This document shows, one piece after another, positions 15,893-62,531 of a DNA stretch of 64,000 bases. The position numbers and the translations under genes are program-made. Under the pieces are notes generated by a model. The model was not told where the DNA came from. It ran no database searches and saw only the letters and a list, made by a program, of their open reading frames with translations. The first letter of the stretch is position 1. Each line of letters opens with the position of its first letter. Source of the stretch: a bacterium (GTDB taxonomy: Bacteria > UBA8248); the NCBI GenBank assembly GCA_965203325.1, contig OZ241875.1:608001-672000 (forward strand), in the 5' to 3' direction.

Positions 15893-15901
15893 ATATTATT
15901 A

Positions 15902-15924: not shown

Positions 15925-15967
15925 CTTACCTTTTCTCACGTTTCCGTGAATAAGCGATTTTGCCCTG

Positions 15968-31643: not shown

Positions 31644-31789
31644 GAAGCCGTCGCCCGGAATAATTATCTCCATTCGGCCCACTCATCCCCCTGGTTTTCC
31701 ATATCCCTTGTTCGCTCCCATCCGGTGTGGCATTCTTGCCCGTGGGAAAAACCTATTGATTCATGTGGGGAAACGCTCTCTTGCGCACG

Positions 31790-33514: not shown

Positions 33515-33539
33515 CATTTGAGCGGAGCGAAGATTAACG

Positions 33540-43560: not shown

Positions 43561-43582
43561 GATTTCATCTCCCTCATCATGC

Positions 43583-44839
43583 CTATAGAAATTCCCTGGG
43601 GTCGGTGATGCGGCCCGTCACCGCACTCGCCGCCACCGTGGCCGGGGAACCCAGATATATCTCGGCCTCCTTGCTGCCGAGCCGGCCGGGGAAGTTGCGG
43701 TTCGCGGAGGATATGGCGCGTTCGCCGTCGGCGAGGCAGCCGTTTCCCGTCATCGAGGCGCACGGCCCGCACGCGGCGGTGAGCACGGCGGCCCCCGCTT
43801 CGGCCAAGGCCCCGATGGCCCCGCTCGCGGCGGCGGCCTCGTAAATTCTCTTGCTCGTGGGCGCGACGTAGAAGCGAACGCCCGGCGCGATCTTCCTGCC
43901 GCGCACGATTCTCGCCGCGATTTCGATGTCCTCGAGCCTCCCGTTCGTGCACGTGCCCACGAACGCCTGCTGGACGGGCAGGCCCGCGTAGTCCTCTACC
44001 GGGTGCGCGTTCCCCGTGGCGGGCGGAGCGGCCACTACCGGAGTGAGAGCCGAAACATCGAGATGGATTCGCCTCGCGTATTCGGCGTCCGGGTCCGGCG
44101 ATACGGGCGTGTTGAACCGCGCCCCGTGCGCCCGCGCCCAGTCGAGCGCCTTATCGTCCACCTCCATGATCCCCGTCTTCGCCCCCATGTCGACCGACAT
44201 GTTCGCGACCGTAAAGCGTGCGTCCATCGAGAGATCGGCCAGCGCGTCACCGCCGTATTCCACCGCCATGTAGTTCGCGCCGTTCTCGCCCATCTCGCGC
44301 GCGAGGACGAGTTCCATGTCTTTCGAAAAAACGCCGTGGGCGAGCGCGCCGGTGAACTCCACGCGAACGCTCTCGGGCGTCTTGAACCAAAGCTTCCCGG
44401 TGGCGTAGGCGGAGGCGATTTCCACGCTCTCGACCGCCACGCCCATCGCGCCCAGCGCCCCGTAGGTGCATACGTGGCTGTCGCCCCCCACGGCGAGCGC
44501 GCCGGGGCCCACCCGGCCCTCCTCCGTCACGACGGTGTGGCAGACGCCCGCGCCGGGTTCAAAGACCTCGACGCCGTGCTCCTCACCGAAGATTCTCAGT
44601 TTCTTGTGATGGTTCGCCCAGAGGACGTCCTGCGCGGGCACGAAATGATCGATGACGAAATCGGTCTTCTTGGGGTCCATCCGGAACTCGAAGCCTGCGT
44701 CCCTGAAGATGTCGACCGCTTTGGGTCCCTTGGCGTCGCCCGCCATGACGTAGTCGAGTTCCGCGATTACCAGGTCGCCGGCCCTGGCCTCGCTATCTGA
44801 GTGCGCGGAGAGGATTTTCTCCGCCATCGTCTGCCCCAC
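43583..44839 (-). CDS. LeuC-like aconitase-family large subunit
   Basis: DHF, GVCH, DSH, GTCTNGR, CGPC, NRNFPGR. Confidence 0.9.
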   Translation of the reverse strand: MGQTMAEKILSAHSDSEARAGDLVIAELDYVMAGDAKGPKAVDIFRDAGFEFRMDPKKTDFVIDHFVPAQDVLWANHHKKLRIFGEEHGVEVFEPGAGVCHTVVTEEGRVGPGALAVGGDSHVCTYGALGAMGVAVESVEIASAYATGKLWFKTPESVRVEFTGALAHGVFSKDMELVLAREMGENGANYMAVEYGGDALADLSMDARFTVANMSVDMGAKTGIMEVDDKALDWARAHGARFNTPVSPDPDAEYARRIHLDVSALTPVVAAPPATGNAHPVEDYAGLPVQQAFVGTCTNGRLEDIEIAARIVRGRKIAPGVRFYVAPTSKRIYEAAAASGAIGALAEAGAAVLTAACGPCASMTGNGCLADGERAISSANRNFPGRLGSKEAEIYLGSPATVAASAVTGRITDPREFL

Positions 44840-45056
44840 GGTGTTCTCCTTGCTGAATCTTTCATATCGGGAACGCAAAGCCTTTGTATACACCAAAAAC
44901 CGGGCGCGCGGAATTGTGAGGAGGCGTGCGCCTCGCGGTGGATTTAGAGGAACAAGGCGACGAGGAGCCGAACGCACCTTCGTTTTGACTTATCCCCCTC
45001 TCTGGGCGAAACTGGCCGGACTGGCTGCTCCACGAGGACAGACAGGAGAGAACCGA

Positions 45057-46881: not shown

Positions 46882-48057
46882 TCAAGGCTTTTTCGAGGAA
46901 GAATAGCGTCTCAGTTCTTCCGCGACTTCCGGGTAGGTGAACCACTCGGGGATTTCTTCGCCCTTTTCCATCATTTTGCGAAGCCTCGTGCCGGATATCC
47001 TGAGGATTCGGGTGTTTTCGGGGATCCGGTCCACCGGCAGGTAGCGTCCCTCATCCGGGGCGTAGACCATCTCCTGAAACGGGACCATCGCGATCCCGCA
47101 TTCGGCCTGGTGGTTTTTCAGTAGATCCTGGGCGGCGTACGGGTCGTAGAAAGGCTCACCCCGGCCGTCGACGCCGGGGCCGGCGTGATCCCTGCCCACG
47201 ATGAAGTGGGTGCAGCCGTAGTTTTTTCTTATGAGCGCGTGCCAGAGCGCCTCTCTGGGGCCGGCCATCCGCATCGCCAGGGGCAGCAGCGCCAGGGTGA
47301 CGGAACCGGACGCGTAATGCTTGAGAACATGCTCGTAGCAGCGCACCCGGCATATATGGTCGATGTCTCCCGGCTTCGTCATCCCTGCCACCGGGTGGAT
47401 GAGTATGTTGGCTCCATTCTCGGAAGCGGCGCTCTTCGTCAGCTCGACGTGCGCCCTGTGCAGCGGGTTGCGCGTCTGAAAGGCGACGACCCGCTTCCAT
47501 CCCATCGCCCGGAATTTCTCCCGCAATTCTCCCGGCGTGCGGCGATATTGCGGGAAATCGGCGTGCCGGGGCAGGCGGATTCCGCGCAGGCGGCCGCCGA
47601 GGTAGAAGGGGCCGGTTTCCTGGAAAAGGTATCGAACCCCCGGATGCGTTTGGTCGAGGGTGTCGAAGACGCTTAATGCCTCTCGTTCGGGGTCGGCCCG
47701 CCATACGTCTTCGGCCTCCAAAATCGCCAGCGGCGTCCCGTCGCCGTCCCGCAGGGCGAGCCGGGGGCGCTTCTCAATCCTGTTCGCCTCTTTCTCGGGA
47801 ACGTCCAAGGCGATGGGGATGGGCCACAACGCCCCGTTTTGAAGGCGCATGGATTCGAGAACGCACTCGTAGTCTTTGCGGCTTGAATATCCTTGTAGCG
47901 GCGCGAAACCGCCGTTCAAGAGCAGTTCGAGATCGCATAGCCGGCGGGCGTCGAGGGAGATGTGAGGCAGATCGGCAGCCTCGCGTTCCAAAGCCGCTCT
48001 TTCCTCCTCGGGGACGAGGAGACGGGGATGCTCCAGCGGGTCGTTTTGCGGGGACAA
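46882..48057 (-). CDS. sat: Sulfate adenylyltransferase (no APS kinase domain)
   Basis: FQTRNPLHRAH, MAGPREA, HFIVGRDHAG, ISGT. Confidence 0.93.
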   Translation of the reverse strand: MSPQNDPLEHPRLLVPEEERAALEREAADLPHISLDARRLCDLELLLNGGFAPLQGYSSRKDYECVLESMRLQNGALWPIPIALDVPEKEANRIEKRPRLALRDGDGTPLAILEAEDVWRADPEREALSVFDTLDQTHPGVRYLFQETGPFYLGGRLRGIRLPRHADFPQYRRTPGELREKFRAMGWKRVVAFQTRNPLHRAHVELTKSAASENGANILIHPVAGMTKPGDIDHICRVRCYEHVLKHYASGSVTLALLPLAMRMAGPREALWHALIRKNYGCTHFIVGRDHAGPGVDGRGEPFYDPYAAQDLLKNHQAECGIAMVPFQEMVYAPDEGRYLPVDRIPENTRILRISGTRLRKMMEKGEEIPEWFTYPEVAEELRRYSSSKKP

Positions 48058-48071
48058 ACCGGACGCTCCCT

Positions 48072-49085
48072 TTAATGGAAACCCAAAAGGAGGGAATCCC
48101 GGTCCTCTGGCGCCCATACGCCCCGCTCAAGCCTTTCTCTTCTTCTTCCGTCATGCCAGCGCTTGTACTCAATGGACGCGATGTTGGTGATGGTGTCGTT
48201 CTCCATCAGTTGGCGCTTCTCGCGGGAGGATAGGTTGTCCGGCGCGCCCGTGAGCGCGTAGCCGAATTCGCCCAGCGTCTCGCCGATGAGGCTTTCGATG
48301 ACCCCCACGTCCGACTCCGGTAGGCGATGCTTGTACATTTCGACGAAATCCGTCGTGATGGGGCGGGCCGTCTTAGCGTGGATGGGCGTTTCGGCCCACT
48401 TTTTCGTCGATGCGGTTTCCTGGTGGGCGAGCATGGCGGGCGAGAATTCTTCGCCCAGGAATTCACACAGTTTCTCCAGAACGGGTTCCGGTTCGGCGCA
48501 GAGATCCTCATATCTCACGACGTAAAAAGACTCGGGATCCAGCGTTTCCGCCGATTCGTTCACGCTCTCGACGAAGTCGCGCCACACGGCGGCGGTCGCG
48601 TAGAGGTTGTTCGGCCACAGTGCGGAATCCGCGATGTCGATGGCGACGTCCCGGCCGTCCCGGATGATGTGAACGAACTGCGCGCCGGGATACATGGATT
48701 TGAGATCCTCCATGTAGAAGCAGACGCGCGGCGTCTTCTCTCCCCAACGCTCTTTTCCGTGCGATTGCGCATACAGCCGGTGCAGGGCGGCGTACATCTC
48801 GGCAAAGCTGGGTTCTTTCATTTCAGCGCGCACTTCCTGAGCGCTCGGCGAGATCGGCCACGCGCGGATCGTCGGTGTGGCGAGGGAGTCCTCGATCATT
48901 TCGGCGAGATTGGCCTCGTTCGACAAGTCGCCGTAGCTGTAGAGATAGGAATAGATGAAATGCGTGAGCCATGCGGGCGGGGGCACCGCCAGGCGCGGGT
49001 GCGCGTCCAGGATCAATCTCAGAAGCGTGGAGCCTGAACGGGGCGAGCTGACGACGAATACGGGGCGTTCGATGTTCTCGGTCAT
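48072..49085 (-). CDS. Sulfotransferase family protein
   Basis: PRSGSTLL...HP, WGEKTP, IRDGRD, RYEDL. Confidence 0.9.
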   Translation of the reverse strand: MTENIERPVFVVSSPRSGSTLLRLILDAHPRLAVPPPAWLTHFIYSYLYSYGDLSNEANLAEMIEDSLATPTIRAWPISPSAQEVRAEMKEPSFAEMYAALHRLYAQSHGKERWGEKTPRVCFYMEDLKSMYPGAQFVHIIRDGRDVAIDIADSALWPNNLYATAAVWRDFVESVNESAETLDPESFYVVRYEDLCAEPEPVLEKLCEFLGEEFSPAMLAHQETASTKKWAETPIHAKTARPITTDFVEMYKHRLPESDVGVIESLIGETLGEFGYALTGAPDNLSSREKRQLMENDTITNIASIEYKRWHDGRRRERLERGVWAPEDRDSLLLGFH

Positions 49086-49166
49086 GAAAATCTTCCTCTC
49101 AGGACGGCCCCGGCGCGTTCGCGCCTCTTTCCGGGGTGTGGTTGGAACGGGTTCATTCCATCATCT

Positions 49167-50045
49167 TCATGCGGGGAAACACATCGTCTCCCAGGGGAAT
49201 CGGTCGGGATTTCCCCGCGTGAAGTGCATGGTTTTCTCAATCAGGTCGAAGATGACCGCGGTGCGCGTCGAGCATGGCTGCGCGCTGTTCGTCCGCGCTC
49301 CCGGCGCGCGCAGGTCTACCGCGCAGATCGAACCCACGCCCCCGTCCCCTCCGGGGCCTTTCCAGGCGAGCGTTCTTTTCAGGCTGTCGAGCGCTTCCGC
49401 CTTGCTCATTCCCTGCGGCACGGACTCATGGAGCCTCGCCAAGGCGTTCTGCATGTAATCGCAGCGCGTCTCCCTGTCCTCGCGCACGTGTTCGGGCAGC
49501 CGGGCCTGCTCGTCCAGCAGGATGAGGCGACCGTTGTTCCCGCGCGCGGAGAATCCTTCCGGATAGACGCGGGATTCGATTCTGTCCTCACAGTGCTCCA
49601 GTACGGCGACCTTGCCCGTGGCGTCCGCCAGAAGAAAATTTCCGCCCCGCTGCCCGGTACCTGCTCCCGTGTGTTTGGGGATAACGTCGTGCAGGTAGGG
49701 GAGCGTCTCATCGACAGTCTCGTAGATTTCCAGAAGGCTTGCCGCGATGGCGCTGCGGCGATCGACGTCGAGCGGGAAGTCTTTTTGTTCTTTCACGGGT
49801 TCGTCTTTTTCCTCGAAAGGCCCCCGGTAGTCCAAAAATGAGCGGATGACGGCCAGGCCCTTTTCGTTCATGCCGGAGTTCACGCCGGGCCGCGAGGCCG
49901 TGTTGAAGCCCATGAAGTCGTTGCCTGCTCCTCCGGTGATGCAGCCGTGCCAGTGGCCGACCTGCATGTAGTCCGAATTCTTGAGCGCAAAGGCGACGGG
50001 ATTTCCCTTGGAATCTGCCGTCGCGACGGCGCCTATGGTGCACAT
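49167..50045 (-). CDS. Ntn-hydrolase (peptidase C45-like)
   Basis: N-terminal M-C-T nucleophile, KNSD, GMNEKGL. Confidence 0.7.
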   Translation of the reverse strand: MCTIGAVATADSKGNPVAFALKNSDYMQVGHWHGCITGGAGNDFMGFNTASRPGVNSGMNEKGLAVIRSFLDYRGPFEEKDEPVKEQKDFPLDVDRRSAIAASLLEIYETVDETLPYLHDVIPKHTGAGTGQRGGNFLLADATGKVAVLEHCEDRIESRVYPEGFSARGNNGRLILLDEQARLPEHVREDRETRCDYMQNALARLHESVPQGMSKAEALDSLKRTLAWKGPGGDGGVGSICAVDLRAPGARTNSAQPCSTRTAVIFDLIEKTMHFTRGNPDRFPWETMCFPA

Positions 50046-50091
50046 TTCGCTCTCCTCACAAGAAACATACTTGAGCAAGCCTCATCTATAG

Positions 50092-52287
50092 TTACGCAAG
50101 GTTCACCCATACGGGACTGCTCCAGGCTTTTTCCTGGTCGACCTGGATCACCCGGACCCAATAGGTGTTGAGGCCCGAGGGCGCATCGTCGTCGATGTAT
50201 TCGAAACGCGCCTCCCAGGGGCCGTCCGTCGAAGGTGTTCTTCCGACTTCAATCCGCTGGCCGAGCCTTCCGGCGTCCGCCATGGCTGGGTTTTCCAGAA
50301 AATCCCGGATTTCTCCTTTAAGCTCCGCGTGTTCCGTGCTGATCTCCATCTCGCCCGCATCGCCGTCCAGTTCGAGGTTGAACCCCCGGGAATCTCCCGC
50401 TGTGTAGAGACTCCAGGAGACCCCGGATTCCGCGCCCGGGTCGAGCCGGTCGCGGTTTTCGACGAGCGCGACGGGTTCCGCCGCCAGGATTCGCGCTTCG
50501 CTTAAAGATAGCTGCCCGTCCCACAGGGTGGAGCGCCCCCGTCCGCGCACCCTGGCGCCTGAGAACAGGACGCGAAGCCAATTGCCCGCCCGATCCTGTG
50601 CGATTTTCTCGGTATGAACCCGCGTCATCCCGCGAAACACCTCGATCCGCTCTATGGGGCCCGTGCCCACGGCTTCGACCGAGATACGGGGCGCTCCCGC
50701 CGTCTCGATCTCCTCTCCCATCCAACTATCGTTCACGGTGAAGCGCAGGTAAATCCGCTCGCCGCTCGTGGCGTAGCAGCGGCGCGCCTTGATGTCGGCC
50801 CAGATGGATTCCCGCGTCAGCTCACCGGCGTAGAGCGCCGTCAGGCCGTTGCGCGCGGCGAAGTGGCTCACGTCCTCGCTCGGGTAACAGGCGCCGGGCT
50901 GGCCGTAGTGGTCGTCGCTCCCGCCGACGAAGCCCACCTTCATGTTCCGCTCGATGGATTCCTCGAGCATCCACTCGAACATGCCGTGTTTGGAGTGGAT
51001 CTCGATGACGGGTTCGAGTTCGGGGTCGTGAAACGCGAGATTCGCCGGACGCCCGCCCACGTGCGGGAGGCTCAGCGCTCCCCCGCCTCGCAGCTGCGCA
51101 TGGAGCTTGGTGATGTGATCTCGATCGGTATCGGAGTCCGAGAGATCCGTCTGCAGCCAGTGGGAGCAGCGGTGGATAGAGTTCTCCTCATCGAAGAAGA
51201 ATATGGCGTGATCCCCGCCCATCGGCGTGGTACCCGACCACTCATAGCCCAGGAAGGGGACGAAGCGGCCCGGCTCGTGGAAGGCGCGGGTCTTTTCTTT
51301 CAGCTCCTCCATGTCCTCGTTCGTCACTTCGAAGCAGTTTCCCTGGTGGGTGGTGAACTCGAGCGCGCCCGCGTCCCGCGCGAAGCGGTAGAATTCCTCG
51401 AAGCTGTTGACGCCCACCGTGCCGGCGGTCTGGCCCCCGTGAAAATCCCCCCAGTAGAGACGGGGGCCCTCTATCCGCTCTCGCACCACGACTGGGTTCG
51501 TGAGCGCCTCGCGTCCCGCACTGTCTTTCACACGGATGCGCGCCACGCCCTCGCTCCCGAATGAAATCTCCTCCGTCCTTATCAGTGCGAGCCCATCTGC
51601 GTCGAAACGCAAATTATCGGGAAGGCCCAGGTTCGCGCCTTCGGCTTCGAGCGAAATTTCTTCTGCGCAGCCTTCCGCAATGTTGCCGTGTCTGTCTTCC
51701 GCTTTCACGAGCAGCCATCCCTTTTCGCCGACGGCGGCCTCGGAGGTCATGATGGCGACGAGGCGGCGCGCCTCTCCTCCCTTGATCCGGAGCGTCGGGG
51801 AACCCGGCAGGGGCTGAAAATTCCCCGCGCCGAATGGGTCGACGAAAATCTTGAACTCGAAATTGCTCTCGCTGAAGGTCTGCGCCTTGAGACCGGGGCT
51901 TCCCTGACTCGTATCGCCCAGGACGATCTCGATGCTGTCGCCTTCCCAGAGACACCCGTCCAGAACGTCGATGGTAAGCGCCTGGCGCCAGTGGCGGATG
52001 TAGCCTCGCCTCTCGAACCTGGGTGCGAGCACCGCTTCGGAATCGGAATGGAGCCGGACCGTGGTGTAGTTCTCCCCCTTGGGGTCATCGAACTGCGGCG
52101 CGCCCCAGTTGCTCACCTGCCGGAAGGCGACCTTGATGGAGCCGCGCTCATCAATGCCCCAGCGGCCCACCGTGTAGCGGATCCGCCATGTGCCGAACTC
52201 GCCGGCCACCGCATCGGCGGCGGGGTCGACCTCGGCGAAGCCCAACTCATCCGTCCAGTCCTGTATCGTCCAATCCGGGAGACGCAC
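50092..52287 (-). CDS. DUF3604 (PHP-like metallohydrolase) protein
   Basis: YWGDFH, FLGYEWS, GGSDDH.G.PG, RRCYATSG, AWSSPVW. Confidence 0.82.
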   Translation of the reverse strand: MRLPDWTIQDWTDELGFAEVDPAADAVAGEFGTWRIRYTVGRWGIDERGSIKVAFRQVSNWGAPQFDDPKGENYTTVRLHSDSEAVLAPRFERRGYIRHWRQALTIDVLDGCLWEGDSIEIVLGDTSQGSPGLKAQTFSESNFEFKIFVDPFGAGNFQPLPGSPTLRIKGGEARRLVAIMTSEAAVGEKGWLLVKAEDRHGNIAEGCAEEISLEAEGANLGLPDNLRFDADGLALIRTEEISFGSEGVARIRVKDSAGREALTNPVVVRERIEGPRLYWGDFHGGQTAGTVGVNSFEEFYRFARDAGALEFTTHQGNCFEVTNEDMEELKEKTRAFHEPGRFVPFLGYEWSGTTPMGGDHAIFFFDEENSIHRCSHWLQTDLSDSDTDRDHITKLHAQLRGGGALSLPHVGGRPANLAFHDPELEPVIEIHSKHGMFEWMLEESIERNMKVGFVGGSDDHYGQPGACYPSEDVSHFAARNGLTALYAGELTRESIWADIKARRCYATSGERIYLRFTVNDSWMGEEIETAGAPRISVEAVGTGPIERIEVFRGMTRVHTEKIAQDRAGNWLRVLFSGARVRGRGRSTLWDGQLSLSEARILAAEPVALVENRDRLDPGAESGVSWSLYTAGDSRGFNLELDGDAGEMEISTEHAELKGEIRDFLENPAMADAGRLGQRIEVGRTPSTDGPWEARFEYIDDDAPSGLNTYWVRVIQVDQEKAWSSPVWVNLA

Positions 52288-52308
52288 GTTTCCTTTCCTT
52301 TCCTTTCT

Positions 52309-52640
52309 GGGGTTGTTGAAAAAGTTCCCCTCCTCAGGGGATAAAGGCACCCCCCCTACCCCCCCTTGTCAGGGAGGCAAGAAAAAACAAAAGCCCCTCT
52401 ACCGGCGGCGGACGTCGCCTTTTCATACCCCCCTGTCAAGGGGGGGGTAGGGGGGGTTGCTTTTCCAGGGGCGGCCCCCCGTGGCCGCCCTTATCGAAGA
52501 TGTCTATTCCCGTGGTTGTCCTTCGTCAGGACAGGCACGGGGGCCTCGGACAGGCGCAGGGGCCTGCCCTGCTACGGTGAACAATCCGATGATCGGGATT
52601 CCCTCCCCCCCCCCTCTCAAGGGGCTTTTTCAACAACCCC
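52309..52640. mobile_element. MITE-like element, copy C
   Basis: Perfect 16-bp TIR GGGGTTGTTGAAAAAG; shares modules with copies A and B. Confidence 0.72.
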
Positions 52641-52656
52641 GTACCAAAACGGCTCT

Positions 52657-53664
52657 TTACTTCGCCATCATGGCCGATGCGGGCAGTTTGATTCCCTTCT
52701 CCTTGTAGTAGCGAATCGCGCCCGGGTGCACGGGGATGTTCGCCTTCGTCATCTTGTTGATGTCGAGGGCTTCCCACGACCTGTGGGCGAGCACCAGGTC
52801 CTTCTTGTTCGCGAAAGTCGCCTTCACCACCTCATACACGAGGTCGTTCGGCACGTGCGCGCCCGAGCCGAGCCAGTTCGTCTGCCCGATGGTCTTGACG
52901 GGTTTCGGGTTCCCCTTGTACATGCCGCCGACGATCGCCGTCTTCACGTAGAACGGGTATTTCGCCAGCATCATCTCCGCCCATTTCCCGTGCCCGAGCC
53001 CGAACACGCGGAAAGGAAGCTGGGAGGTGATGGAGGCGACGGCGGGATGAGGCGGCGCGCCGATCGTGGCGGCGACGTCGAGAATGCCGTCCTGCATCAT
53101 GCGGTTCGCCTGCCCGTGGCCCACGTTGGTCACCTGGCTGGGCTTTAAGCCGACCACCTTCATGAGATTGCGCCCGAAGCGGTCCACGCCGCTGCCCGGA
53201 CGGCTGATGTTGAGGCGCCTTCCCTGGATGTCCTCCGCCTTCATGATGGGGCTTTTCGCTGGCGTCCAGAACTGCACGCCCGAGCTGTCCACCGGCGACA
53301 TGATGCGAAGGTTCTTGTAGCGCTTCCCTTTGGCGAAGCCTCTGCCATGATAGGCGGCGTCGGAAATGCTCGAACTCGTGCCGAAGCCGAAATCCTGCCT
53401 GCCCTGGCTGATGAGCCTGGCGTTCACCGTGGCGCCGGCGGTGGACTCCACCGAGGAGTTGAGCTTGAGCACCTTGTTCAGCACGCTGGACCAGCCAAGC
53501 GCCTGGAACTGGATGGTTCCCTGGAGAGGTCCGCCGCCGATGGTGATGCGTTTGGGCCAGTCTTTTCTCGCCCCCTCGGCGGGAGCGGACAACGCGACTC
53601 CGAAGGCGAAGGCGGCGATGATCGCAAAAACCACGGGTTGAATCTGCTTGCGGGTGAGTTTCAT
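52657..53664 (-). CDS. TAXI-family TRAP transporter solute-binding protein
   Basis: Signal peptide, STAG...N, PGSG, IPVHPGAIRYYKE. Confidence 0.9.
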   Translation of the reverse strand: MKLTRKQIQPVVFAIIAAFAFGVALSAPAEGARKDWPKRITIGGGPLQGTIQFQALGWSSVLNKVLKLNSSVESTAGATVNARLISQGRQDFGFGTSSSISDAAYHGRGFAKGKRYKNLRIMSPVDSSGVQFWTPAKSPIMKAEDIQGRRLNISRPGSGVDRFGRNLMKVVGLKPSQVTNVGHGQANRMMQDGILDVAATIGAPPHPAVASITSQLPFRVFGLGHGKWAEMMLAKYPFYVKTAIVGGMYKGNPKPVKTIGQTNWLGSGAHVPNDLVYEVVKATFANKKDLVLAHRSWEALDINKMTKANIPVHPGAIRYYKEKGIKLPASAMMAK

Positions 53665-53721
53665 GGCCTTTCTCCTCTGTGTGAGATTGACAGGCTGTCA
53701 GGTTCACGTGAAAACCTGCGT

Positions 53722-55644
53722 CTAAGTGCTCTCCTCAAGTGTTTCCTCTTTTTGCTTCCCGCTGCGAATCTTCTGGAACCAGGCGAGCAGGTCGCCCCCC
53801 AGCCCCAGGGCCAATACAACGAGGCCGATGATGTCCGTCAGGCCGCCGGTCAGGATCAGCAGCAGGGCCGCCACCCCCAGTACGCCCCTGCGCCACAGGG
53901 CGATTCCCTGGTCGATGACGCACCTCGCCAGGGCGTAGACGCCGAAAAGCGCCGTGCCGACCGCCATCGCGATGCCTCCCCAGGAGCCCTGCATCAGGAG
54001 CGAATCCCCGTAGACGAACAGGAACGGGACGATGTAGGCGGCGATACCGAGCCGCACCGCCATGAAGCCGACCTGCATGGGATGGGCGCCTGCGAGCGCG
54101 CCCGCGGCGAAGGCCGAAGCCGCCACGGGCGGTGTCATGGTGGCCAGGACGGCGTAGTAGAAAATGAACATGTGTGCGCTCAGGAGCGGAAACCCCAGTT
54201 TCACGAGAGCGGGACCGGCGGCCGCCGCGGCGACGAGGTAGGCGGCGACCGTCGGCACGCCCATCCCCAGGACGATGGAGACCAGCATGACGGCGAGGAG
54301 TCCCAGCATCTTGCTGTCGCCCACGTAGGAGAGCAACAGGTCCGTGACCTTGAGTCCCAGCCCCGTGAGAGACAGGACGCCCACGACCACGCCCGCCAGG
54401 GCGCTGGGCGTCGCGACGTGAATGGCGCCTTCCATCGTCCGGTAGAGCGCCTCGGCCACCCTTTTCGCCCCCATGCGCGTCTCCTGCCGGAGCCAGCTGG
54501 CGACCACCGCCGCGCCGATGGCGTAAAAGGCCGATTTCATCGGCGAGACGCGCACGTAGACCAGGAAGTAGATGAGGACGAAGATGGGCAGAAGCAGGTG
54601 GCCGTTCTGACGCAGGACGTCCCAGAGGCGCGGAAGCTCACTCCTGGGCAGGCCGCTCAGGCCTAAGTTTTTCGCTTCGACGCCGATCATGAAATAGACG
54701 GCCACGTAGAAGAGAATGGCCGGTATGAGGCCCGCTGCTGCGATCTTGAGATAGGGGATGCCGGTCACCTCGGCCATCACGAACGCCGTGACGCCCATGA
54801 CGGGAGGCATGAGTTGCCCGCCGGTGGAGGCGACGGTCTCGACGGCGCCCGCGAAGGCGGGACGATAGCCGATGCTCTTCATCAGGGGGATGGTGAAGGT
54901 GCCGGTCGTCACCACGTTCGTCACCGAACTGCCGGACATCGTGCCGAACAGGCTGCTGGCGAAAACCGCCACCTTGGCCGGCCCGCCTCGCGCGCCGCCC
55001 GCGATGGCCAGAGAGGTATCGATGAACAGCCTTCCTGCGCCCGAGCTCTGAAGAGCGGAGCCGAAGAGGATGAAGAGGATGATGAAGGTGGAAGAGGCCG
55101 CCAGCGGGGGCCCGAAGATTCCCTCCAGGCTGAAGAGGTACGTGATGGTGCGCGGATAGGGATAACCCCTGTGGCCCCACAGGCCCGGGAGGTAGTCGCC
55201 CCACAGCGCATAGGCCAGGCAGACGAGGGCGAGGATCGGCAGCACGTATCCCTGCAGGCGGCGTCCCATCTCCAGGATGACGAGGAACGTGATGGTGGCG
55301 AAAATGACGTCGTAGATGTTGGGGTCGACGCCGACCCGGTAGAGCATCTCGTCGAAGTCGACGATGAGGAAGATGGTCGTCGTGACGAGGAGAAAGGCGA
55401 GGGAATAATCGAGGAGGTTGGGGCCTTCGTTTTTCCTGTCGGCTCTCCAGGGGATGAGCGCGAAAACGAGGATGCCCGATGACGTCAGGTGAAAGGATCG
55501 CAATATCCAGGGCTGAATCGGCTGGACCATGAGGACGTAGAGGTGAAACGCGGTGCTCAAGGCTCCAAAGGCGAATATGATCTTCGCCAGAATATCGGGG
55601 AGGTTCCTGTGCTGGGACCCTACTCCCTCGGTTCTATCCTGCAT
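53722..55644 (-). CDS. TRAP transporter fused (4TM/12TM) permease
   Basis: GGPAKVAV, GSSVTNV.TTG.FTIP, STGGQLMPPVMG, TPPVA. Confidence 0.92.
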   Translation of the reverse strand: MQDRTEGVGSQHRNLPDILAKIIFAFGALSTAFHLYVLMVQPIQPWILRSFHLTSSGILVFALIPWRADRKNEGPNLLDYSLAFLLVTTTIFLIVDFDEMLYRVGVDPNIYDVIFATITFLVILEMGRRLQGYVLPILALVCLAYALWGDYLPGLWGHRGYPYPRTITYLFSLEGIFGPPLAASSTFIILFILFGSALQSSGAGRLFIDTSLAIAGGARGGPAKVAVFASSLFGTMSGSSVTNVVTTGTFTIPLMKSIGYRPAFAGAVETVASTGGQLMPPVMGVTAFVMAEVTGIPYLKIAAAGLIPAILFYVAVYFMIGVEAKNLGLSGLPRSELPRLWDVLRQNGHLLLPIFVLIYFLVYVRVSPMKSAFYAIGAAVVASWLRQETRMGAKRVAEALYRTMEGAIHVATPSALAGVVVGVLSLTGLGLKVTDLLLSYVGDSKMLGLLAVMLVSIVLGMGVPTVAAYLVAAAAAGPALVKLGFPLLSAHMFIFYYAVLATMTPPVAASAFAAGALAGAHPMQVGFMAVRLGIAAYIVPFLFVYGDSLLMQGSWGGIAMAVGTALFGVYALARCVIDQGIALWRRGVLGVAALLLILTGGLTDIIGLVVLALGLGGDLLAWFQKIRSGKQKEETLEEST

Positions 55645-55949
55645 CGGCTTCGCCTTTGTGTGGTCTGTGTTTCAATCGAAAAGGAATCGGAAAAATTCCT
55701 TTTTCCGAATTTTCAATAGCGTCGTTGTCGGCAATCCCTCAAAAAAGTTTTTATGAGCGTTCGTCATCGGCGCGATTCGGGAGGCGTCGTTTCGGCCTTT
55801 GGTTACCTCCACGAAACGCAGAGACGCCGTGAACCCCTCGTCATCGGGAATCCGGCCTTCCTGAAATCCGGGAAGGACGCCTCACTCTGAATAAAAAGTA
55901 TGTAACTGGTATACAAACAAACATTTTCCGGGTCAATCCCGCGCCGTTC

Positions 55950-56262
55950 GGGGTTGTTGGAAAAGTCCCCTCCTCGCTCGGAATTGACCACCGCCGTCAT
56001 TCCGGCGAAAGCCGAAATCCATTTTTACGCCTTTTGCCTTTCGTCATGGTTCCCGCGCATCGGTGGGGAATGAAACGCCGCCGTTCATTCACCCGCATCC
56101 GCAAATGGATTCCGGCTTTCGCCGGAATGACGAACAAAACCGCACCGCCTCTTGTAGTGGGCCGTTCTTGTGAACGGCCCAAGGTCGCGACCTGTCCCTA
56201 CGGCCCCTTTCACGGTCGACTCCATACGCCGAATCAAAAAATCTGGATCTTTTCAACAGCCC
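55950..56262. mobile_element. MITE-like element, copy D
   Basis: GGGGTTGTTGGAAAAG...CTTTTCAACAGCCC; internal GTCATTCCGGCGAAAGCC...GGCTTTCGCCGGAATGAC. The right half resembles copy B. Confidence 0.7.
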
Positions 56263-56265
56263 GGA

Positions 56266-57792
56266 TCATTCATCCCCCAGGGCGAACTCCTCTTGTGGCT
56301 GATCCCTGTTCCTGCGGAGAAGGGCGGAGATCAGCGGATACGCGAGGACGAGGGCGGTCAATATGATGAGGGCGATGCTGATCGGCCGGGTCCACAGGAT
56401 CGACCAGTCATCCTGCGACAGGCGGAGCGCGACCCTCAGGTTGAACTCGACCTTGGGTCCCAGGATGAGGCCGAGAATGAGCGGGGCGATGGGAAACTTC
56501 AGCCGCTCCATCGCGTAGCCGAACAGGCCGAACCCCAGCATCAGGTAGACGTTGAAGATGCTGTTCTCGAACGAATAGATGCCCACCACCGTCAGCGCGA
56601 TGATGACCGGCATCAACTGCACCTGCGCCAGCCGCAGGATGTTGGCGAACAGCTTGGTCGCGATGATGCCGCCGAACACGAACAGGGAAGCCGAGGTGAA
56701 CAGCATCGCCCACATGTAGCCGTACACCACGTCGGGCGCTTCCTTGAACAGGCGCGGGCCGGGTTCGAGCCCGTGGATGAGCAGGCCCGCCAGTATCAGG
56801 GCGGCCAGCCCGCTGCCGGGAACCCCCAGCGTGAGGGCGGGGATCATCGCGGCGGCGTTGTCGGCGTTGTTGGCGCACTCGGCCACGGCGACGCCCACCG
56901 GGTTTCCCTTCCCGAAGCTCTCGGGGTCTTTCGATGAGCGCTTGGTCTCGTTGTAGGCGACGAATGCGCCGACGACGCCCCCGACGCCGGGGAGAATCCC
57001 GATGATGATCCCGATGACGTTCGCGCGGATCCAGGCGGGGAAAATCTGCATCCACGGCCAGTTCGCCATGTCGGATTTGCCTTCGAATTCGAGGTCTTTG
57101 GATTTCACGCCGGTCATGATGGCGCGTTCGGCCATCTGAAACGCAGGCGGAAGCGCGTACACCCCGACCATGATGACGATGAGCTGCAACCCGCCCGAAA
57201 GCTCAAGCGTGTCGAAGGTGAAGCGCTCATAGCCGGTCACGTGGTCGAGGCCCACCATGCCCAGGAGCAGTCCGACGCAAGAGGCCATCAGGCCCTTGAT
57301 GGGGTCGGACCCGAGCAGGACGGCGATGCTGGAGAGGCCGAACAGGCTGATCCAGAAGATCTCGGGCGGCCCGAAGGCCAGGGCGAATTCCGCAAGCGGC
57401 GGGGAGAGCGTCATCAGCGATACGGCGCTTACCATGCCGCCCACCGCCGAGGAGACGCACGCGATCTTGAGGGCGCGCTCTGCGAGGCCCTGCTGGGCCA
57501 TCGGGTAGCCGTCGAACGTGGTGGCGATGGCGCCCGGCGTGCCCGGAATGCGCAGCAGGACGGCGGGGATGGCGCCGCCGTATGAGCCGCCGTTGTGGAT
57601 GCCGGCCATCATCCCGAGCGCCATGAGCGGCGACATGCCGAAGGTGAGGGGGATCAAGAGGGCGATGCCCATCGTCGCCGTCAGGCCCGGAATGGCGCCG
57701 AAGATGATGCCGCCGATCACCCCCACGAGCATGGCGAGAATGTTCTGCCACTCGAGGATGACCCACAGGGAATTGTAGAAAGGCTCTATCAA
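56266..57792 (-). CDS. tctA: Tripartite tricarboxylate transporter large permease
   Basis: GAIPGL, IPGTP...DGYPMA, LTLGVPG. Confidence 0.92.
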   Translation of the reverse strand: MIEPFYNSLWVILEWQNILAMLVGVIGGIIFGAIPGLTATMGIALLIPLTFGMSPLMALGMMAGIHNGGSYGGAIPAVLLRIPGTPGAIATTFDGYPMAQQGLAERALKIACVSSAVGGMVSAVSLMTLSPPLAEFALAFGPPEIFWISLFGLSSIAVLLGSDPIKGLMASCVGLLLGMVGLDHVTGYERFTFDTLELSGGLQLIVIMVGVYALPPAFQMAERAIMTGVKSKDLEFEGKSDMANWPWMQIFPAWIRANVIGIIIGILPGVGGVVGAFVAYNETKRSSKDPESFGKGNPVGVAVAECANNADNAAAMIPALTLGVPGSGLAALILAGLLIHGLEPGPRLFKEAPDVVYGYMWAMLFTSASLFVFGGIIATKLFANILRLAQVQLMPVIIALTVVGIYSFENSIFNVYLMLGFGLFGYAMERLKFPIAPLILGLILGPKVEFNLRVALRLSQDDWSILWTRPISIALIILTALVLAYPLISALLRRNRDQPQEEFALGDE

Positions 57793-57860
57793 GGTTTCAT
57801 CCCCGGGGCTTGGAGTTTGAGAACGAATCGGTGTCCGGGCACGATGTTACGCACTCCCCC

Positions 57861-58334
57861 TTAGTGGCGCAGGAAAAATTCCTGCGTGAGCGGGCGGTCG
57901 AAGAGCTGATCGAACACCACGAAGATGAACAGGAGATAACAGACCGTGGTGCCCGCCATGACGAACCTGTTCCGGTAGCCCAGCGCCCACGCCGCGGCGG
58001 GAATGAAAACCAGCGAGGCGCTGTAATAGCCGAGATACTGAACGCCCGCGATGTAGCCCAGCGCCATGAGGGTACTTAGGAGGAACCTTTTGTGGTGGAT
58101 GAAGAAAGGCTCGAAGGTCCTGCTCCGCCCGGATTTGAGCCACGACTTCACGAACATGAGAACGGAGAGAATGACCATCAGGCCGATGACCATCCGCGGG
58201 TAGAAGGCCGCTTCTTCGGGGAAACTCCCGGCGTGGTAGTAGAGGAAGGTCGTCGCAAAGAAAAAGATTACGGAGGCGACCCTGTCATGGTTCTGGAACA
58301 CGTGCGCTTCCCCCGCGAGTGTAGCCAGGGACAA
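57861..58334 (-). CDS. tctB: Tripartite tricarboxylate transporter small subunit
   Basis: Four to five TM helices, FYP, LGYY; adjacent to tctA. Confidence 0.8.
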   Translation of the reverse strand: MSLATLAGEAHVFQNHDRVASVIFFFATTFLYYHAGSFPEEAAFYPRMVIGLMVILSVLMFVKSWLKSGRSRTFEPFFIHHKRFLLSTLMALGYIAGVQYLGYYSASLVFIPAAAWALGYRNRFVMAGTTVCYLLFIFVVFDQLFDRPLTQEFFLRH

Positions 58335-58372
58335 CTCGTATGAGGCCGAAACTTCAAAGCGCCTTTTTCTTG

Positions 58373-59155
58373 CTACGGCATGGCGTCGACCTCGGCCAGG
58401 AACCCGAGCGTGTGCCGGCAGAACGCCTCGGGTCTTTCAATCGGGATCAGGTGTCCGCAGTCGGGAATCCTGACGAGCCGCGAACCCGGGATCCCCTCGT
58501 TCATGATTTCCGCATGGCCCATCACGTTGGTGACGTCCGCCTCGCCGTTCAGGATGAGCGTCGGAGCCTCGATGCCGGGGAGCTCCGCCTTGATGTCGAA
58601 CGTCCCGAGCGCGGTGACCGTGAGTTCGCGGAATTTCTGCGGCGATTGCAGGGCGATACCGTACGCCTCGACCACGTCCGCCTCATCGCTGCCCGGACGG
58701 AACCAGTGGTGGATGAGACGATCCGCAACGGCGGGCCATCCGTCCCGCTCCAGTTCGGCCAGCGTCTCGGGGACGTTGCGCCCCGTGCGGTCGGGCATCG
58801 TCCCCACGAGCACCAGCCCGTCCACACGGTCTGGGTAATCGAGGGCGAAGCACTGGGCTATCATGCCGCCCATGGAGAGCCCGCAGACGTGGGCCTTCTC
58901 GACGCCGAGCGCGTCCATGAGGCGCGCCAGTTCCCCTGCGAATCCGCGCGGCGAGAAATCGCCGCTCTCTTTTTTCTCGGAATCGCCGAACCCCTGGCGG
59001 TCGTGCGCGATGGCGCGGTAGCGTTTTTTGAACTCGGGCGTGATTTTACGCCACACGCGGCTCGAACCCGCGTTCCCGTGAAGAAAGAATACGGGTTTCC
59101 CCTCGCCCTCGTCGACGTAGTGGAGGTCGACTCCCGAGACGTTGATGTGCGGCAT
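58373..59155 (-). CDS. Alpha/beta hydrolase (enol-lactonase-like)
   Basis: HG, GLSMGG nucleophile elbow, GEAD, GH. Confidence 0.88.
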   Translation of the reverse strand: MPHINVSGVDLHYVDEGEGKPVFFLHGNAGSSRVWRKITPEFKKRYRAIAHDRQGFGDSEKKESGDFSPRGFAGELARLMDALGVEKAHVCGLSMGGMIAQCFALDYPDRVDGLVLVGTMPDRTGRNVPETLAELERDGWPAVADRLIHHWFRPGSDEADVVEAYGIALQSPQKFRELTVTALGTFDIKAELPGIEAPTLILNGEADVTNVMGHAEIMNEGIPGSRLVRIPDCGHLIPIERPEAFCRHTLGFLAEVDAMP

Positions 59156-59248
59156 ACCTTTCACCCGACCCTGAGGCGCACCGGCTATGCACGCCTCGGG
59201 GTTGCTCGTGATTTTGCGCTCTCGCTTACGTGAAGACCCGGACCGTTC

Positions 59249-60229
59249 TTACTTCTTTTTCTTCTTCATCCAGGGATTCGTCTTCCAGAGCTGCTCGTGC
59301 GCCATGTGAGAGGCGTTTGCGACCTTCGCCATCTCCTCGCCGCTCGTGTATTCCACCGCGACTTTCTGCTTCTTCGCCACTTTCAGGAATCCCGGGTCCG
59401 CGATCGCCTTTTTGAAGGCGGCGCGCAGCTTCGCCAGAATGGGCGCCGGCACCCCCTTGGGAGCGGCCACGGGGCGGTAGACGAAGTTGGTGATGTCCAC
59501 GCCCTGTTCCTTGAACGTCGGGACCCAGGAGCCGATCGACACCCGCTCGGGCGCCGCCTGAGCGAGGATGTTGACCTTGTCCCTGAATTTGGCGATAGCC
59601 GACATCGAGATCGCCAGCACCGGAACGTGGCCGCCGAGCAGGGCGTTGCGCGCGGGGCCGCCGCCGCCGAAGGGCACCTTGTTGAATTTGAGTCCCGTCT
59701 TGACCATGAACTTGCTGGTCCCGATGCTGTGGACGCTGCTGAGGGCCGCCATGCCTATCGAGATTTTACCGGGGTTCTTCTTGACGTCGGCCATGAGGTC
59801 GGCCAGCGTTTTGTACTTGCTCGTCTTGAGCACGGCGAACGTCGTCGGTCCCCTGTTCACGTTGCCCAGGAAGTCGAAGTCCTTGATGGTGTATTTCACC
59901 TTCCCCATGATGGGGCCGACGATGGCCTGGGGGAAGTTCGTCATGCCGATGGTGTAGCCGTCGGGCTTGGCGTTCGCTATCGCGTTGAACCCGATGTTGC
60001 CGCCCGCGCCCGGCTTGTTGATGATGGCGATCTTGGCGCCAGCTCCCAAGTGTTTTTCCAGAAAGGGAACGAAGGCGCGCGACGTCCTGTCCGAACCGCC
60101 CCCGACCCTGTAGGCGACGATGTAGTTGATGGCGCGTTCGGGATAGGCCGCTTCAACCGGGACTGAATCGACGAACCCCACGGATACCAGAACACCAAAG
60201 GCGATGATGCATTTCATGATCTTGGACAT
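59249..60229 (-). CDS. tctC: Tripartite tricarboxylate transporter substrate-binding protein
   Basis: YP, GGGSD, NKPGAGG, PDGYT, LLGGHV, VPTFKEQG. Confidence 0.92.
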   Translation of the reverse strand: MSKIMKCIIAFGVLVSVGFVDSVPVEAAYPERAINYIVAYRVGGGSDRTSRAFVPFLEKHLGAGAKIAIINKPGAGGNIGFNAIANAKPDGYTIGMTNFPQAIVGPIMGKVKYTIKDFDFLGNVNRGPTTFAVLKTSKYKTLADLMADVKKNPGKISIGMAALSSVHSIGTSKFMVKTGLKFNKVPFGGGGPARNALLGGHVPVLAISMSAIAKFRDKVNILAQAAPERVSIGSWVPTFKEQGVDITNFVYRPVAAPKGVPAPILAKLRAAFKKAIADPGFLKVAKKQKVAVEYTSGEEMAKVANASHMAHEQLWKTNPWMKKKKK

Positions 60230-60460
60230 CGGGCTTCCTCCATGAGCAGTTTTCCCAGATTATGTTTCGATTCCGTGTATTCGGCTCCTATTATTCGTGG
60301 TTTCTCGCAACGAAAGAGAAAACGAATAGACCGGACTTCCTCAAGAGGCGCATGACTCGCATGAAATATGGATGTCCACCATGATAGTGAATCCAAGGAG
60401 GCGGCACAAGCGCGCCTTATCCGGCCCGGAAATACCGATGCGCCGGGAGTCGTCTACCCA

Positions 60461-61474
60461 TCAGCAAAGAGAGCGCAGGAGGGATTTTCTCTCTTCGAGC
60501 TTCCAGACGCCCCCTTCGAGCCGCTCGCGCCGCCGGTCGGCGTGCCATTTGCGGTAGGCGATCACGCGGGGGGCTGAGATCATCTCGCTCTCCATCAACT
60601 GGGCCGCGAGCTTTTCCGGGATGGGCTTCGCGCTCCCGCCCACCGGGTAGCCGAACTCGACGAGCAACTCCCCCATCACCTCCTCGAGCGTGGACACGTC
60701 GTCCGCAGGCAGGCGCGTCTTGTACATCCCGCAGTATTCCGTGGAGATGGGCCGCCCGCTCTTCACGTGGTTGGGAAGGGAGCTCCAGCTCTTCGAGGAA
60801 TCCGTTTCGTGGTGGGCCAGCATCTGCGGGTCGAAATCCTCGCCCAGAAATCCGCACAGTTTTTTAAGTTCATTCTCAGGCTCCGCACACAAGTCCTCGT
60901 AACGGATGACGTAATAATCCGATTTCCCCATGCGTTTTCCCGATTCGTGCGCGGCGCCGGTGAAATCCTTCCAGACGTGGGCGCCCGAGTATACGTTCTC
61001 GGGCAGCATCTCGGGCGAATCGGCGATGTCGATCGCCATGTCGCGCCCGTCGCGCACGATGTGGACGAACTGCGCAGCCGGGAAATCCGCCTTGATCTCC
61101 TCCATCCAGAACGAATTGCGGGGGGATTTCTCGCCCCACCGCTCCTTTCCCGTGCGCTCGGCGTAGTGGCGGTGAAGCGCGTCGTAAAGCCCCCGGAAGG
61201 TAGGCTCGGCAGCAGCGGCAACGAGGTCCTCGGGCGTGATGTCTAGCTTCATGTTCTTGATGAAGGGGCTCTCGAAGATGTCCTCGGCGAGGGCCGCGAG
61301 GTTTTCCGGGCTTGATAAGTCGCCATAGCTGTAGAGGTAGGGGTAGACCATTTCGTACAGCCAGGCGGGGGAAGGCACCGCCAGGCGCGGGTGGGCGTCC
61401 AGGATGAGGCGGAACAGGGTCGAGCCTGAACGCGGGGCGCTGACGATGAATACGGGTCTGGAAAAATCCGGCAT
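60461..61474 (-). CDS. Sulfotransferase family protein (paralog of 48072-49085)
   Basis: Same 337-aa length; PRSGSTL, WGEKSP, VRDGRD. Confidence 0.9.
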   Translation of the reverse strand: MPDFSRPVFIVSAPRSGSTLFRLILDAHPRLAVPSPAWLYEMVYPYLYSYGDLSSPENLAALAEDIFESPFIKNMKLDITPEDLVAAAAEPTFRGLYDALHRHYAERTGKERWGEKSPRNSFWMEEIKADFPAAQFVHIVRDGRDMAIDIADSPEMLPENVYSGAHVWKDFTGAAHESGKRMGKSDYYVIRYEDLCAEPENELKKLCGFLGEDFDPQMLAHHETDSSKSWSSLPNHVKSGRPISTEYCGMYKTRLPADDVSTLEEVMGELLVEFGYPVGGSAKPIPEKLAAQLMESEMISAPRVIAYRKWHADRRRERLEGGVWKLEERKSLLRSLC

Positions 61475-61718
61475 GTTTCCTCCTTCATGGATTATCGGGC
61501 GTGCCCCTATTCAGGCGGTTTCTCCCCCGCCCTCGATTGCATGGCGTGTGGGCGCATTATACGGGCGCGCCCCCCCGGAGCCTAATCAGTTGGGAAGATC
61601 GTCGAATGAAGGAGAGGTATAAACCTCTCGCTTTTCCATCCTTGCAACCGCGTGGATGATGCGATTTACTGAAAACCCTGTCCTCATCAACCAATACGAG
61701 CCTGAAAGGAGTTCTCAG

Positions 61719-62531
61719 ATGGCCGGATTCGCCTTCGATTTCGTTCCCCTCCCTGAAGAGCGGAGCATGGAAAAACCCAGAACCAGCGGGATCACCATGA
61801 TGATCGACAAGGGGGAGACCATCGAATATCTCCGGGGGCTCCTGCGGATGAGCGGCCCGTTCATTGACCTGGGCAAAATCGCGGTGGGCACCTCGCGCCT
61901 CTATCTCGAGGATTACTACCGCGAGAAGCTCGAACTCTTCAAAAGCCACGATATCAAGCCCTTCATCGGCGGGCAGTTCCTGGAGTTCATCTTCGCCACG
62001 CAGGGCTGGGGCGGGGTTCAGCCCTATTTCGAGGCGGCGGCGGAATACGGGGTCGAGGCGATAGAGATTTCCGACAACTGCGTTTCTCTTACAGACGGCG
62101 AAAGGGAGCGGATGGTGCGCTCAGCAATAGACGCAGGGCTGGAGGTGCACGGCGAGGTGGGCTCCAAGACCGGCAAGCAGGACGTGGCGGAGTTGATCTC
62201 ACAGGCGAACATCTGCATGGATGCGGGCGCCTCGGTGGTGCTGTTCGAGGCGGCGGAACTCATGCCGGGCGGCGCGGCCGACCGCGCTCTGATCGATTCG
62301 ATCCGGGAGCAGATGGACGTCCGCAAGGTGATTTTCGAGCTTCCCGGCTGGTGGATCGAAGGCACCACGAACAACGTCATCTACGAGCTACAGAAGTTCC
62401 TGCTCACCGAATTCGGCCCTGACGTGAACATCGGGAACGTGCCTCCCTGGATGACGTTCAATCTCGAAGCCCTGCGCTGCGGCCTCAGTTCGGTCGGCCC
62501 GACGGAGCGGACCTTCGAATCTGCGGGATGA
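61719..62531 (+). CDS. comA: Phosphosulfolactate synthase (ComA)-like protein
   Basis: KPR..GITMMIDKG, IEISD, EVGSK, FGPDVNIGNV, LEALR.GL. Confidence 0.75.
   Translation: MAGFAFDFVPLPEERSMEKPRTSGITMMIDKGETIEYLRGLLRMSGPFIDLGKIAVGTSRLYLEDYYREKLELFKSHDIKPFIGGQFLEFIFATQGWGGVQPYFEAAAEYGVEAIEISDNCVSLTDGERERMVRSAIDAGLEVHGEVGSKTGKQDVAELISQANICMDAGASVVLFEAAELMPGGAADRALIDSIREQMDVRKVIFELPGWWIEGTTNNVIYELQKFLLTEFGPDVNIGNVPPWMTFNLEALRCGLSSVGPTERTFESAG

Follow-up and report, generated by a model that had tools for sequence, protein, structure and literature searches.

The window analyzed here is a stretch of 64,000 nucleotides from a bacterium of the lineage UBA8248 (contig OZ241875.1, positions 608,001 to 672,000), and positions within it are counted from its first letter. 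It encodes two sulfotransferases (STs), ST1 and ST2, which carry an aspartate in place of the serine that binds the 3'-phosphate of 3'-phosphoadenosine 5'-phosphosulfate (PAPS), together with an ATP sulfurylase (Sat) that has no adenosine 5'-phosphosulfate (APS) kinase domain and directly follows ST1. In standard teaching, PAPS serves all sulfotransferases as the sulfuryl donor. The question considered here is whether these Asp-type enzymes may draw on APS, the product of Sat, instead.

Two Asp-Type Sulfotransferases and a Kinase-Less Sat

ST1 (48072-49085, minus strand) and ST2 (60461-61474, minus strand) are paralogs of 337 amino acids each, with 54% identity across 331 residues; the sequence of ST1 includes FVHIIRDGRDVAIDIADS and that of ST2 includes FVHIVRDGRDMAIDIADS. 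Both exceed the 27-bit cut-off of the Sulfotransfer_3 profile PF13469, ST1 with 122.6 bits (E 3.8e-35) and ST2 with 108.2 bits (E 9.5e-31). The 5'-phosphosulfate-binding loop of ST1, P15-R-S-G-S-T20 (49026-49043, minus strand), is intact, and its columns are invariant in an alignment of 27 sequences (A1). The loop aligns with the PRSGST or PRSGTT of tyrosylprotein sulfotransferases (TPSTs) and of the sulfotransferases of the curacin protein CurM and of olefin synthase (OLS). An AlphaFold (AF2) model of ST1 built from the same alignment reached a pLDDT of 88.7 and a pTM of 0.87, and its top Foldseek matches are TPST2, TPST1, OLS ST and CurM ST, with a probability of 1.00 and E values of 1e-12 to 1e-11. 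The best structural matches are the two TPSTs (PDB 5wrj, 3ap1 and 9wwe; E 1.1e-12 to 7e-12, the lowest value for TPST2). In a phmmer search of PDB sequences, the best matches among solved structures are OLS ST (4gox, E 1.3e-15) and CurM ST (4gbm, E 4.3e-13), followed by TPST1/2 at about 1e-7. These sequence and model comparisons place ST1 and ST2 in a conserved TPST/CurM-like clade.

The 3'-phosphate-binding (3'PB) motif reads R142-D-G-R-D-V-A-I-D150 in ST1 (48636-48662, minus strand, read from 48662 to 48636) and R141-D-G-R-D-M-A-I-D149 in ST2 (61028-61054, minus strand, read from 61054 to 61028), as the initial annotation had noted for both paralogs. In the phmmer alignments, 'irdgrdvaid' of ST1 pairs without gaps with 'vrdgrasvhs' of TPST1 and with the CurM/OLS ST motifs, and therefore Asp150 sits on the Ser of the R-x7-S signature, confirming the register that the initial annotation had assumed; Asp149 takes the same place in ST2. 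Judged by this signature of PAPS-dependent sulfotransferases, both enzymes keep the Arg and have no Ser at its end. In the ST1 model, a strand (136-141) precedes a helix (144-155) that contains D150. Ser154, which is invariant in A1, lies four residues, or about one helical turn, past Asp150 on this helix, so the register does not suggest that another Ser takes over the 3'-phosphate site, the outcome that would have undone the initial proposal.

Sat (46882-48057, minus strand) lies in a reading frame that is open from 46882 to 48117, with a likely start at the TTG at 48057. It consists of a PUA_2 domain (PF14306, 156 bits) and an ATP-sulfurylase domain (PF01747, 291 bits) only, and scores 447.8 bits against TIGR00339 (cut-off 322.95). 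Against NF004040, the 572-position model of bifunctional Sat/kinase proteins, it spans positions 14-392 and reaches 549.7 bits, below the cut-off of 669; no C-terminal APS kinase domain is present. The ST1 stop codon TAA (48074-48072) is followed by GGGAG, a ribosome-binding site, and then by the TTG at 48057 in the Sat frame. With this 14-nucleotide gap, ST1 is translationally adjacent to the kinase-less Sat, as first annotated. The genome of the window (G000; a single 4.39-Mb contig of 95% completeness) encodes no second Sat beyond the one after ST1.

The order of Sat after ST1 recurs on one contig in 10 related loci. A further case is found in a metagenome-assembled genome (MAG) of the Burkholderiales, in which an acidic-type sulfotransferase, a TauE-like protein, a member of the Na/sulfate symporter family and a kinase-less Sat lie together (locus L070, 9523-14438). 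The APS kinase profile gives only a weak P-loop match in this genome, and the locus is an independent linkage to Sat in another lineage.

Invariant Aspartate and Absent Glutamate

Asp occupies the Ser site in 120 of 120 homologs among the matches listed, in addition to ST1 and ST2, and in all 50 loci of the close family, defined by at least 45% identity; the motif is also invariant in A1. These close-family loci come from Nitrospinota, Burkholderiales and other Betaproteobacteria, Rhodospirillales, Desulfarculaceae and other MAGs. Among 30 more distant loci (31-38% identity), the site holds Glu in 15, Asp in nine and Ser in six. An exhaustive search with ST1 returned 574 cluster representatives at E<=1e-30, and in an alignment of the best 150 of these, Ser is found at the site in 141 of 172 domain rows. 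The Ser-type relatives of ST1 read RDGRDVALS. On these alignments, the Asp-type enzymes are a distinct minority clade within a large, mostly Ser-type group, and the apparent invariance of the Asp argues for selection rather than tolerance. Some members seemed to carry N-terminal extensions (loci L018, L019 and L021), but these stem from reading out of frame through an enolase-superfamily gene upstream and were discounted.

A second difference from the Ser-type relatives, absent from the initial annotation, is the loss of a Glu in the Asp-type clade. After the HP motif, the Ser-type relatives read AIPPESHF, whereas the Asp-type clade reads AVPPPAWL. The Glu of this PPE motif aligns with the 'PPE' Glu of CurM/OLS ST; its position corresponds to Pro37 in ST1 (48975-48977), and ST2 has no Glu at the equivalent site. 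In CurM ST and TPST2, the Glu after the HP motif is the catalytic base. Among 151 rows in which both columns are present, Glu and Ser occur together in 114. None of the 117 Glu-bearing rows is acidic at the Ser site, and the 12 rows that are acidic there all lack the Glu. The Glu is also absent from 21 Ser-type rows, where other residues can presumably act as the base.

Both sites separate ST1 and ST2 from their closest solved relatives. The TPSTs have the PRSG[ST]T loop and the R-D-G-R core of the 3'PB motif in common with ST1 and ST2, but they keep the Ser of R-x7-S and a Glu base behind the HP motif, act on proteins and take the sulfuryl group from PAPS, while ST1 has Asp, Pro37 and neighbors that encode small-molecule transporters and Sat. 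Similarly, the CurM and OLS sulfotransferases are domains of polyketide synthases (PKSs) that act on 3-hydroxyacyl chains bound to acyl carrier protein and use PAPS, Ser and the PPE Glu, whereas ST1 and ST2 are free-standing and have both residues replaced.

The mutual exclusion of the Glu and an acidic Ser-site residue would also fit enzymes that are no longer O-sulfotransferases, and that put their nucleotide-binding fold to another use: they may transfer a sulfuryl group to a carboxylate, thiol or amine, carry out another reaction of an adenine nucleotide, or only bind a ligand. Neighbors that metabolize acids, namely the Carboxyl_trans, enolase-superfamily, LeuCD-like, C45-like and ComA-like proteins described below, agree with such a change. 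However, the PRSGST loop is invariant, the linkage to Sat implies a sulfuryl donor, and the 21 Ser-type rows have likewise dispensed with the Glu, which together make this explanation unlikely.

Sat and APS Kinase in Genomes with Asp-Type Enzymes

Within the phylum, 51 genomes were sampled, including 23 of genus g1, two of g5 and seven of a sister class (f4), with APS kinase called at E<=1e-10. Asp-type enzymes are found in 14 of the 51 genomes, of which 13 belong to g1 and one to g5. Of the 13 carriers in g1, 12 also encode a kinase-less Sat, versus none of the 10 non-carriers in this genus. The remaining carrier is the 79% complete G075, and the only other Sat in the genus, that of G083, shares one open frame with an APS kinase. 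No APS kinase was called in 11 of the 14 carriers, including the single-contig genomes G069, G085, G090 and G094 (94-98% complete). The other three are the window's genome, G073 (identical to the genome G005) and G077, in which the match is partial.

Other users of APS were also sought. PAPS_reduct proteins (CysH/CysD) were found in none of five carrier genomes tested, and AprA did not exceed its cut-off in any of three single-contig g1 carriers tested, nor in the window's genome. Since these three g1 genomes encode neither CysH/CysD nor AprA, the Asp-type sulfotransferases are the only candidate APS users in them. In two carriers, G013 (C1:2576597-2579671) and G018 (C18:545062-549158), the neighbor of the kinase-less Sat is AprA, an arrangement of the dissimilatory kind, and not the sulfotransferase. 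Sampling at the order level around G018 recovered the enzyme (E<=1e-60) in two of 301 genomes, both already in the set. Class f4 has no Asp-type enzyme; Sat adjoins cysC in all seven of its genomes. The Asp-type arrangement thus shares its first enzyme with the Sat-CysC pathway to PAPS, but where f4 has cysC beside Sat, g1 has an Asp-type sulfotransferase. CysQ (TIGR01331), taken as a marker of the turnover of 3'-phosphoadenosine 5'-phosphate (PAP), was uninformative, as none of the 51 genomes exceeded its cut-off and 50 encode inositol-phosphatase paralogs.

The initial annotation had suggested testing whether Asp-type homologs co-occur with sat and not with cysC. This pattern holds in g1 and, for the kinase, in 11 of the 14 carriers of the phylum, but it does not extend across the close family. 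In a wider set of 50 genomes with acidic-type enzymes (39 close-family and 11 distant-type; MAG completeness not known), a clear APS kinase is present in 21 of the 39 close-family and nine of the 11 distant-type genomes. The other 18 close-family and two distant-type genomes have no kinase, or a weak N-terminal match of about 50 residues or fewer. A full-length APS kinase is encoded in 5 of 5 genomes with Ser-type relatives.

The window's genome provides an internal control. As the initial annotation stated, there is no cysC in the window; APS kinase (PF01583) has no match there, and the only match in the genome lies about 1.9 Mb away (C1:2516611-2517057). At this locus (C1:2516611-2517395), the kinase domain stands behind a cysD fragment with no cysN between them. 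The fragment, the only PAPS_reduct match of the genome, covers model positions 2-54 of 175. In the relative G005, the kinase is contained in a 651-residue cysNC-like frame, and the locus in the window's genome resembles a cysDNC locus after a partial deletion, with only the kinase retained. A third sulfotransferase (P0124) is encoded 14 kb from this cysC, as the C-terminal domain of an 841-residue protein in a PKS cluster that also comprises a PKS of 2346 residues and a 580-residue protein (C1:2521087-2532453). This domain is Stf-like (PDB 2zq5, E 5.5e-40) and has a canonical R-x7-S motif, THREPTQFMGS. It belongs to the same superfamily as ST1 and ST2, as do the mycobacterial Stf-type enzymes (2zq5, 2z6v), but unlike ST1 and ST2 it keeps the Ser. 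Its ortholog is found in only one of 13 relatives, G005 (85% identity), where cysNC lies 13 kb off on the same contig. Because the third sulfotransferase and cysNC recur together in G005 only, cysC appears to travel with the Ser-type enzyme; it accompanies the canonical Ser-type enzyme rather than the Asp-type ones.

The use of APS by sulfotransferases has a precedent in engineered enzymes. In one report, the five canonical enzymes Stf0, NST, C4ST, AST IV and EST use APS in vitro, with a kcat/Km roughly 2- to 5-fold below that for PAPS, and changes in the 3'PB motif raise the activity with APS: S140E, S140I, R132N and R132E in AST IV, and R143C, S152P and W154N in Stf0 (Xu et al., 2023; PMC10638397, Nat Commun 14:7297). 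The natural replacement of Ser by Asp in ST1 and ST2 parallels the S140E change described there for AST IV. Those APS users are laboratory variants of PAPS enzymes, whereas the Asp-type clade is natural and widespread, with linkage to Sat and absence of APS kinase. A full-text literature search, to which subscription journals were mostly closed, did not turn up any natural sulfotransferase described as preferring APS.

Taken together, it is somewhat probable that the Asp-type clade has switched its donor from PAPS to APS. This reading, the best supported of those considered, is based on the invariant acidic residue at the Ser site, the operon linkage to Sat, the complete genomes that keep both but encode neither APS kinase nor APS reductase, and the control provided by cysC and its canonical enzyme. 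Several observations weigh against it. R142, with which the 3'PB motif begins, is invariant, and the literature assigns this Arg to the positioning of PAPS as well; the best of the engineered variants altered the Arg that the Asp-type clade keeps (Xu et al., 2023). The whole RDGRD core is common to the Ser-type relatives. Given that Ser-type enzymes also use APS in vitro, the absence of cysC argues for the use of APS and not for Asp as its determinant. Many of the genomes are MAGs whose completeness is not known, members of one genus do not count as independent cases, and about half of the carrier genomes encode an APS kinase, as counted above for the wider set. The cysC domain of the window's genome is apparently intact, so PAPS may be available there, and outside the Nitrospinota clade Sat is found near the enzyme in L070 only. 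Furthermore, the clade is without the catalytic Glu of its closest solved relatives, and its chemistry may differ from ordinary O-sulfation. The independence from PAPS and the coupling to Sat and APS proposed in the initial annotation are accordingly favored by the co-occurrence and by the absence of CysH and CysD from the five carriers tested and of AprA from the three single-contig g1 carriers tested, but are tempered by a Sat adjacency that is not family-wide and by the retained Arg.

Some of these observations would be expected of ordinary PAPS-dependent enzymes, in which the Asp would be tolerated at the 3'PB site or bridged there by a metal, PAPS would come from cysC or from outside the cell, and Sat would feed cysC. 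R142 and the RDGRD core shared with the Ser-type relatives, the cysC in the window's genome and the kinase in 21 of the 39 close-family carriers all suit such enzymes. PAPS use of this kind nevertheless seems distinctly unlikely, considering that 11 of the 14 carriers of the phylum, four of them single-contig genomes, have no APS kinase, and that cysC co-occurs with the Stf-like Ser-type enzyme instead of the Asp-type ones. In addition, the Asp is invariant, and a carboxylate beside a phosphate would be unfavorable without a bridging cation.

Uptake Operons and the Proposed Reaction

The genes around ST1 and ST2 encode uptake systems and enzymes of organic acids. On the minus strand, ST1 is preceded by a fused permease of the tripartite ATP-independent periplasmic (TRAP) type (53722-55644; TIGR02123, 607 bits), a TAXI-type TRAP solute-binding protein (52657-53664; TIGR02122, 182 bits), a DUF3604 or CehA-McbA-like metallohydrolase (50092-52350; PF12228, 52.6 bits) and, directly upstream, a C45-like acyltransferase/hydrolase of the N-terminal nucleophile (Ntn) type (49167-50078; NF040521, E 7.5e-11, below the cut-off). 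ST1 and Sat come next, and downstream of Sat lies a pair of LeuC/LeuD-like dehydratase genes of the aconitase family (43075-44977, minus strand; NF001614, 489 bits, and TIGR02087, 150 bits). The DUF3604 and C45-like proteins have no match at E<=0.01 among PDB sequences. ST2 is flanked downstream by the solute-binding protein TctC of a tripartite tricarboxylate transporter (TTT) (59249-60229, minus strand; PF03401, 137.8 bits), with TctB-like (57861-58334, minus strand) and TctA (56266-57792, minus strand; PF01970, 480 bits) nearby. On its other side are a divergent gene of the ComA family, resembling phosphosulfolactate synthase (61656-62531, plus strand; PF02679, 183.6 bits; PDB 1qwg, E 1.5e-21), and a short-chain dehydrogenase/reductase.

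This association with uptake systems is conserved, an observation absent from the initial annotation, and the gene links are seen again in other phyla. TctA/TctB-like genes are syntenic in relatives, the order TctC-ST-TctB-TctA is found in locus L045, and TctC also lies beside Asp-type enzymes in Burkholderiales loci, with the order Crp, Carboxyl_trans, enolase-superfamily protein, ST, TctC, LeuC, LeuD and a second enolase-superfamily protein. The C45-like gene is syntenic with ST1 orthologs, and with TAXI/TRAP genes in L016 and L017, while DUF3604 adjoins Asp-type enzymes in L016, L049 and L051. In the betaproteobacterial locus L051, a ComA gene (9104-9970) lies 16 nucleotides upstream of an Asp-type enzyme, and the presence of a ComA-family gene beside Asp-type enzymes in two distant phyla suggests a shared sulfur-containing intermediate. 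Since the sulfotransferases are cytoplasmic and embedded in operons for carboxylate uptake, their acceptor is probably an imported small organic acid, and this context points to an unrecognized function of sulfation in small-acid metabolism.

Beyond the window, 5-7 kb past its end, are genes for a siroheme-type methylase and a 600-residue NIR_SIR reductase (L086:5718-8395; C1:676717-679397 of the window's genome), in a genome without CysH/CysD. A role of the enzyme as an APS:thiol sulfotransferase that replaces CysH and feeds this reductase was set aside, as only proximity, at 6 kb beyond the window, connects the genes.

If the donor has indeed changed from PAPS to APS, the reaction could proceed as follows. 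Sat would convert sulfate and ATP into APS, which the sulfotransferases would use directly, releasing AMP. The Asp would repel a 3'-phosphate and form hydrogen bonds with the free ribose hydroxyls, much as an acidic residue makes Rossmann enzymes specific for NAD rather than NADP. The acceptor would be a small carboxylated compound imported by the adjacent transporters, TAXI-TRAP in the case of ST1 and TTT in that of ST2. Sulfation would probably activate this compound for the neighboring hydrolase, dehydratase or ComA-like enzymes, and the sulfate released could be activated again by Sat. A role in activation is favored because, among solved structures, the nearest in sequence are the 'activating' sulfotransferases of the curacin and olefin synthases, which install sulfate as a leaving group and not as an end product.

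The use of APS would spare one ATP and the PAP-recycling step of sulfation, and would account for genomes that keep Sat without a kinase or reductase. It would also supply biocatalysis with a ready-made APS-specific scaffold, for which the published route is the mutagenesis of PAPS enzymes. A bolder version, which we regard as doubtful, is that Sat and an Asp-type enzyme form a natural two-enzyme, PAPS-free module that sulfates an imported acid, with sulfate as a recycled leaving group in catabolism. Such a module would overturn PAPS as the only biological sulfotransferase donor and add sulfation-elimination to the activation chemistry of catabolism.

The same gene neighborhood could also be read in the opposite direction, with an imported sulfate ester and AMP yielding APS, which Sat would turn with pyrophosphate into ATP and sulfate in an energy-conserving desulfation. 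Uptake operons of the TAXI-TRAP and TTT types beside hydrolase-like genes have a catabolic layout, and the Sat of g1 has no known partner that consumes or produces APS other than these enzymes. Sat works toward ATP in arrangements like those with AprA in G013 and G018, and a phosphate nucleophile would require no catalytic base, matching the absent Glu. The energetics oppose this direction, however: hydrolysis yields about -37 kJ/mol for an alkyl sulfate and about -80 kJ/mol for APS, so that an alkyl sulfate could yield APS only against a steep energy gradient, and the steady-state level of APS would be extremely low. L070, moreover, ties an acidic-type enzyme and Sat to a gene of the Na/sulfate symporter family, as would suit the uptake of sulfate and a forward reaction. 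Desulfation by this route is thus very unlikely.

The remainder of the window contains several features of separate interest. A Gabija-like pair consists of an OLD-family ATPase/TOPRIM protein and, next in order, a UvrD-type helicase (6211-10040), and a second OLD-like ATPase is encoded at 28161-30140. A Mutator-family transposase (11908-12981) adjoins a stretch of low GC content (14001-16000; 0.435 versus about 0.6 elsewhere in the region), and the two together may be an inserted element. Finally, flavoprotein and iron-sulfur subunits resembling TfrA/TfrB of thiol:fumarate reductase are encoded at 31763-34756, both scoring below the equivalog cut-offs.

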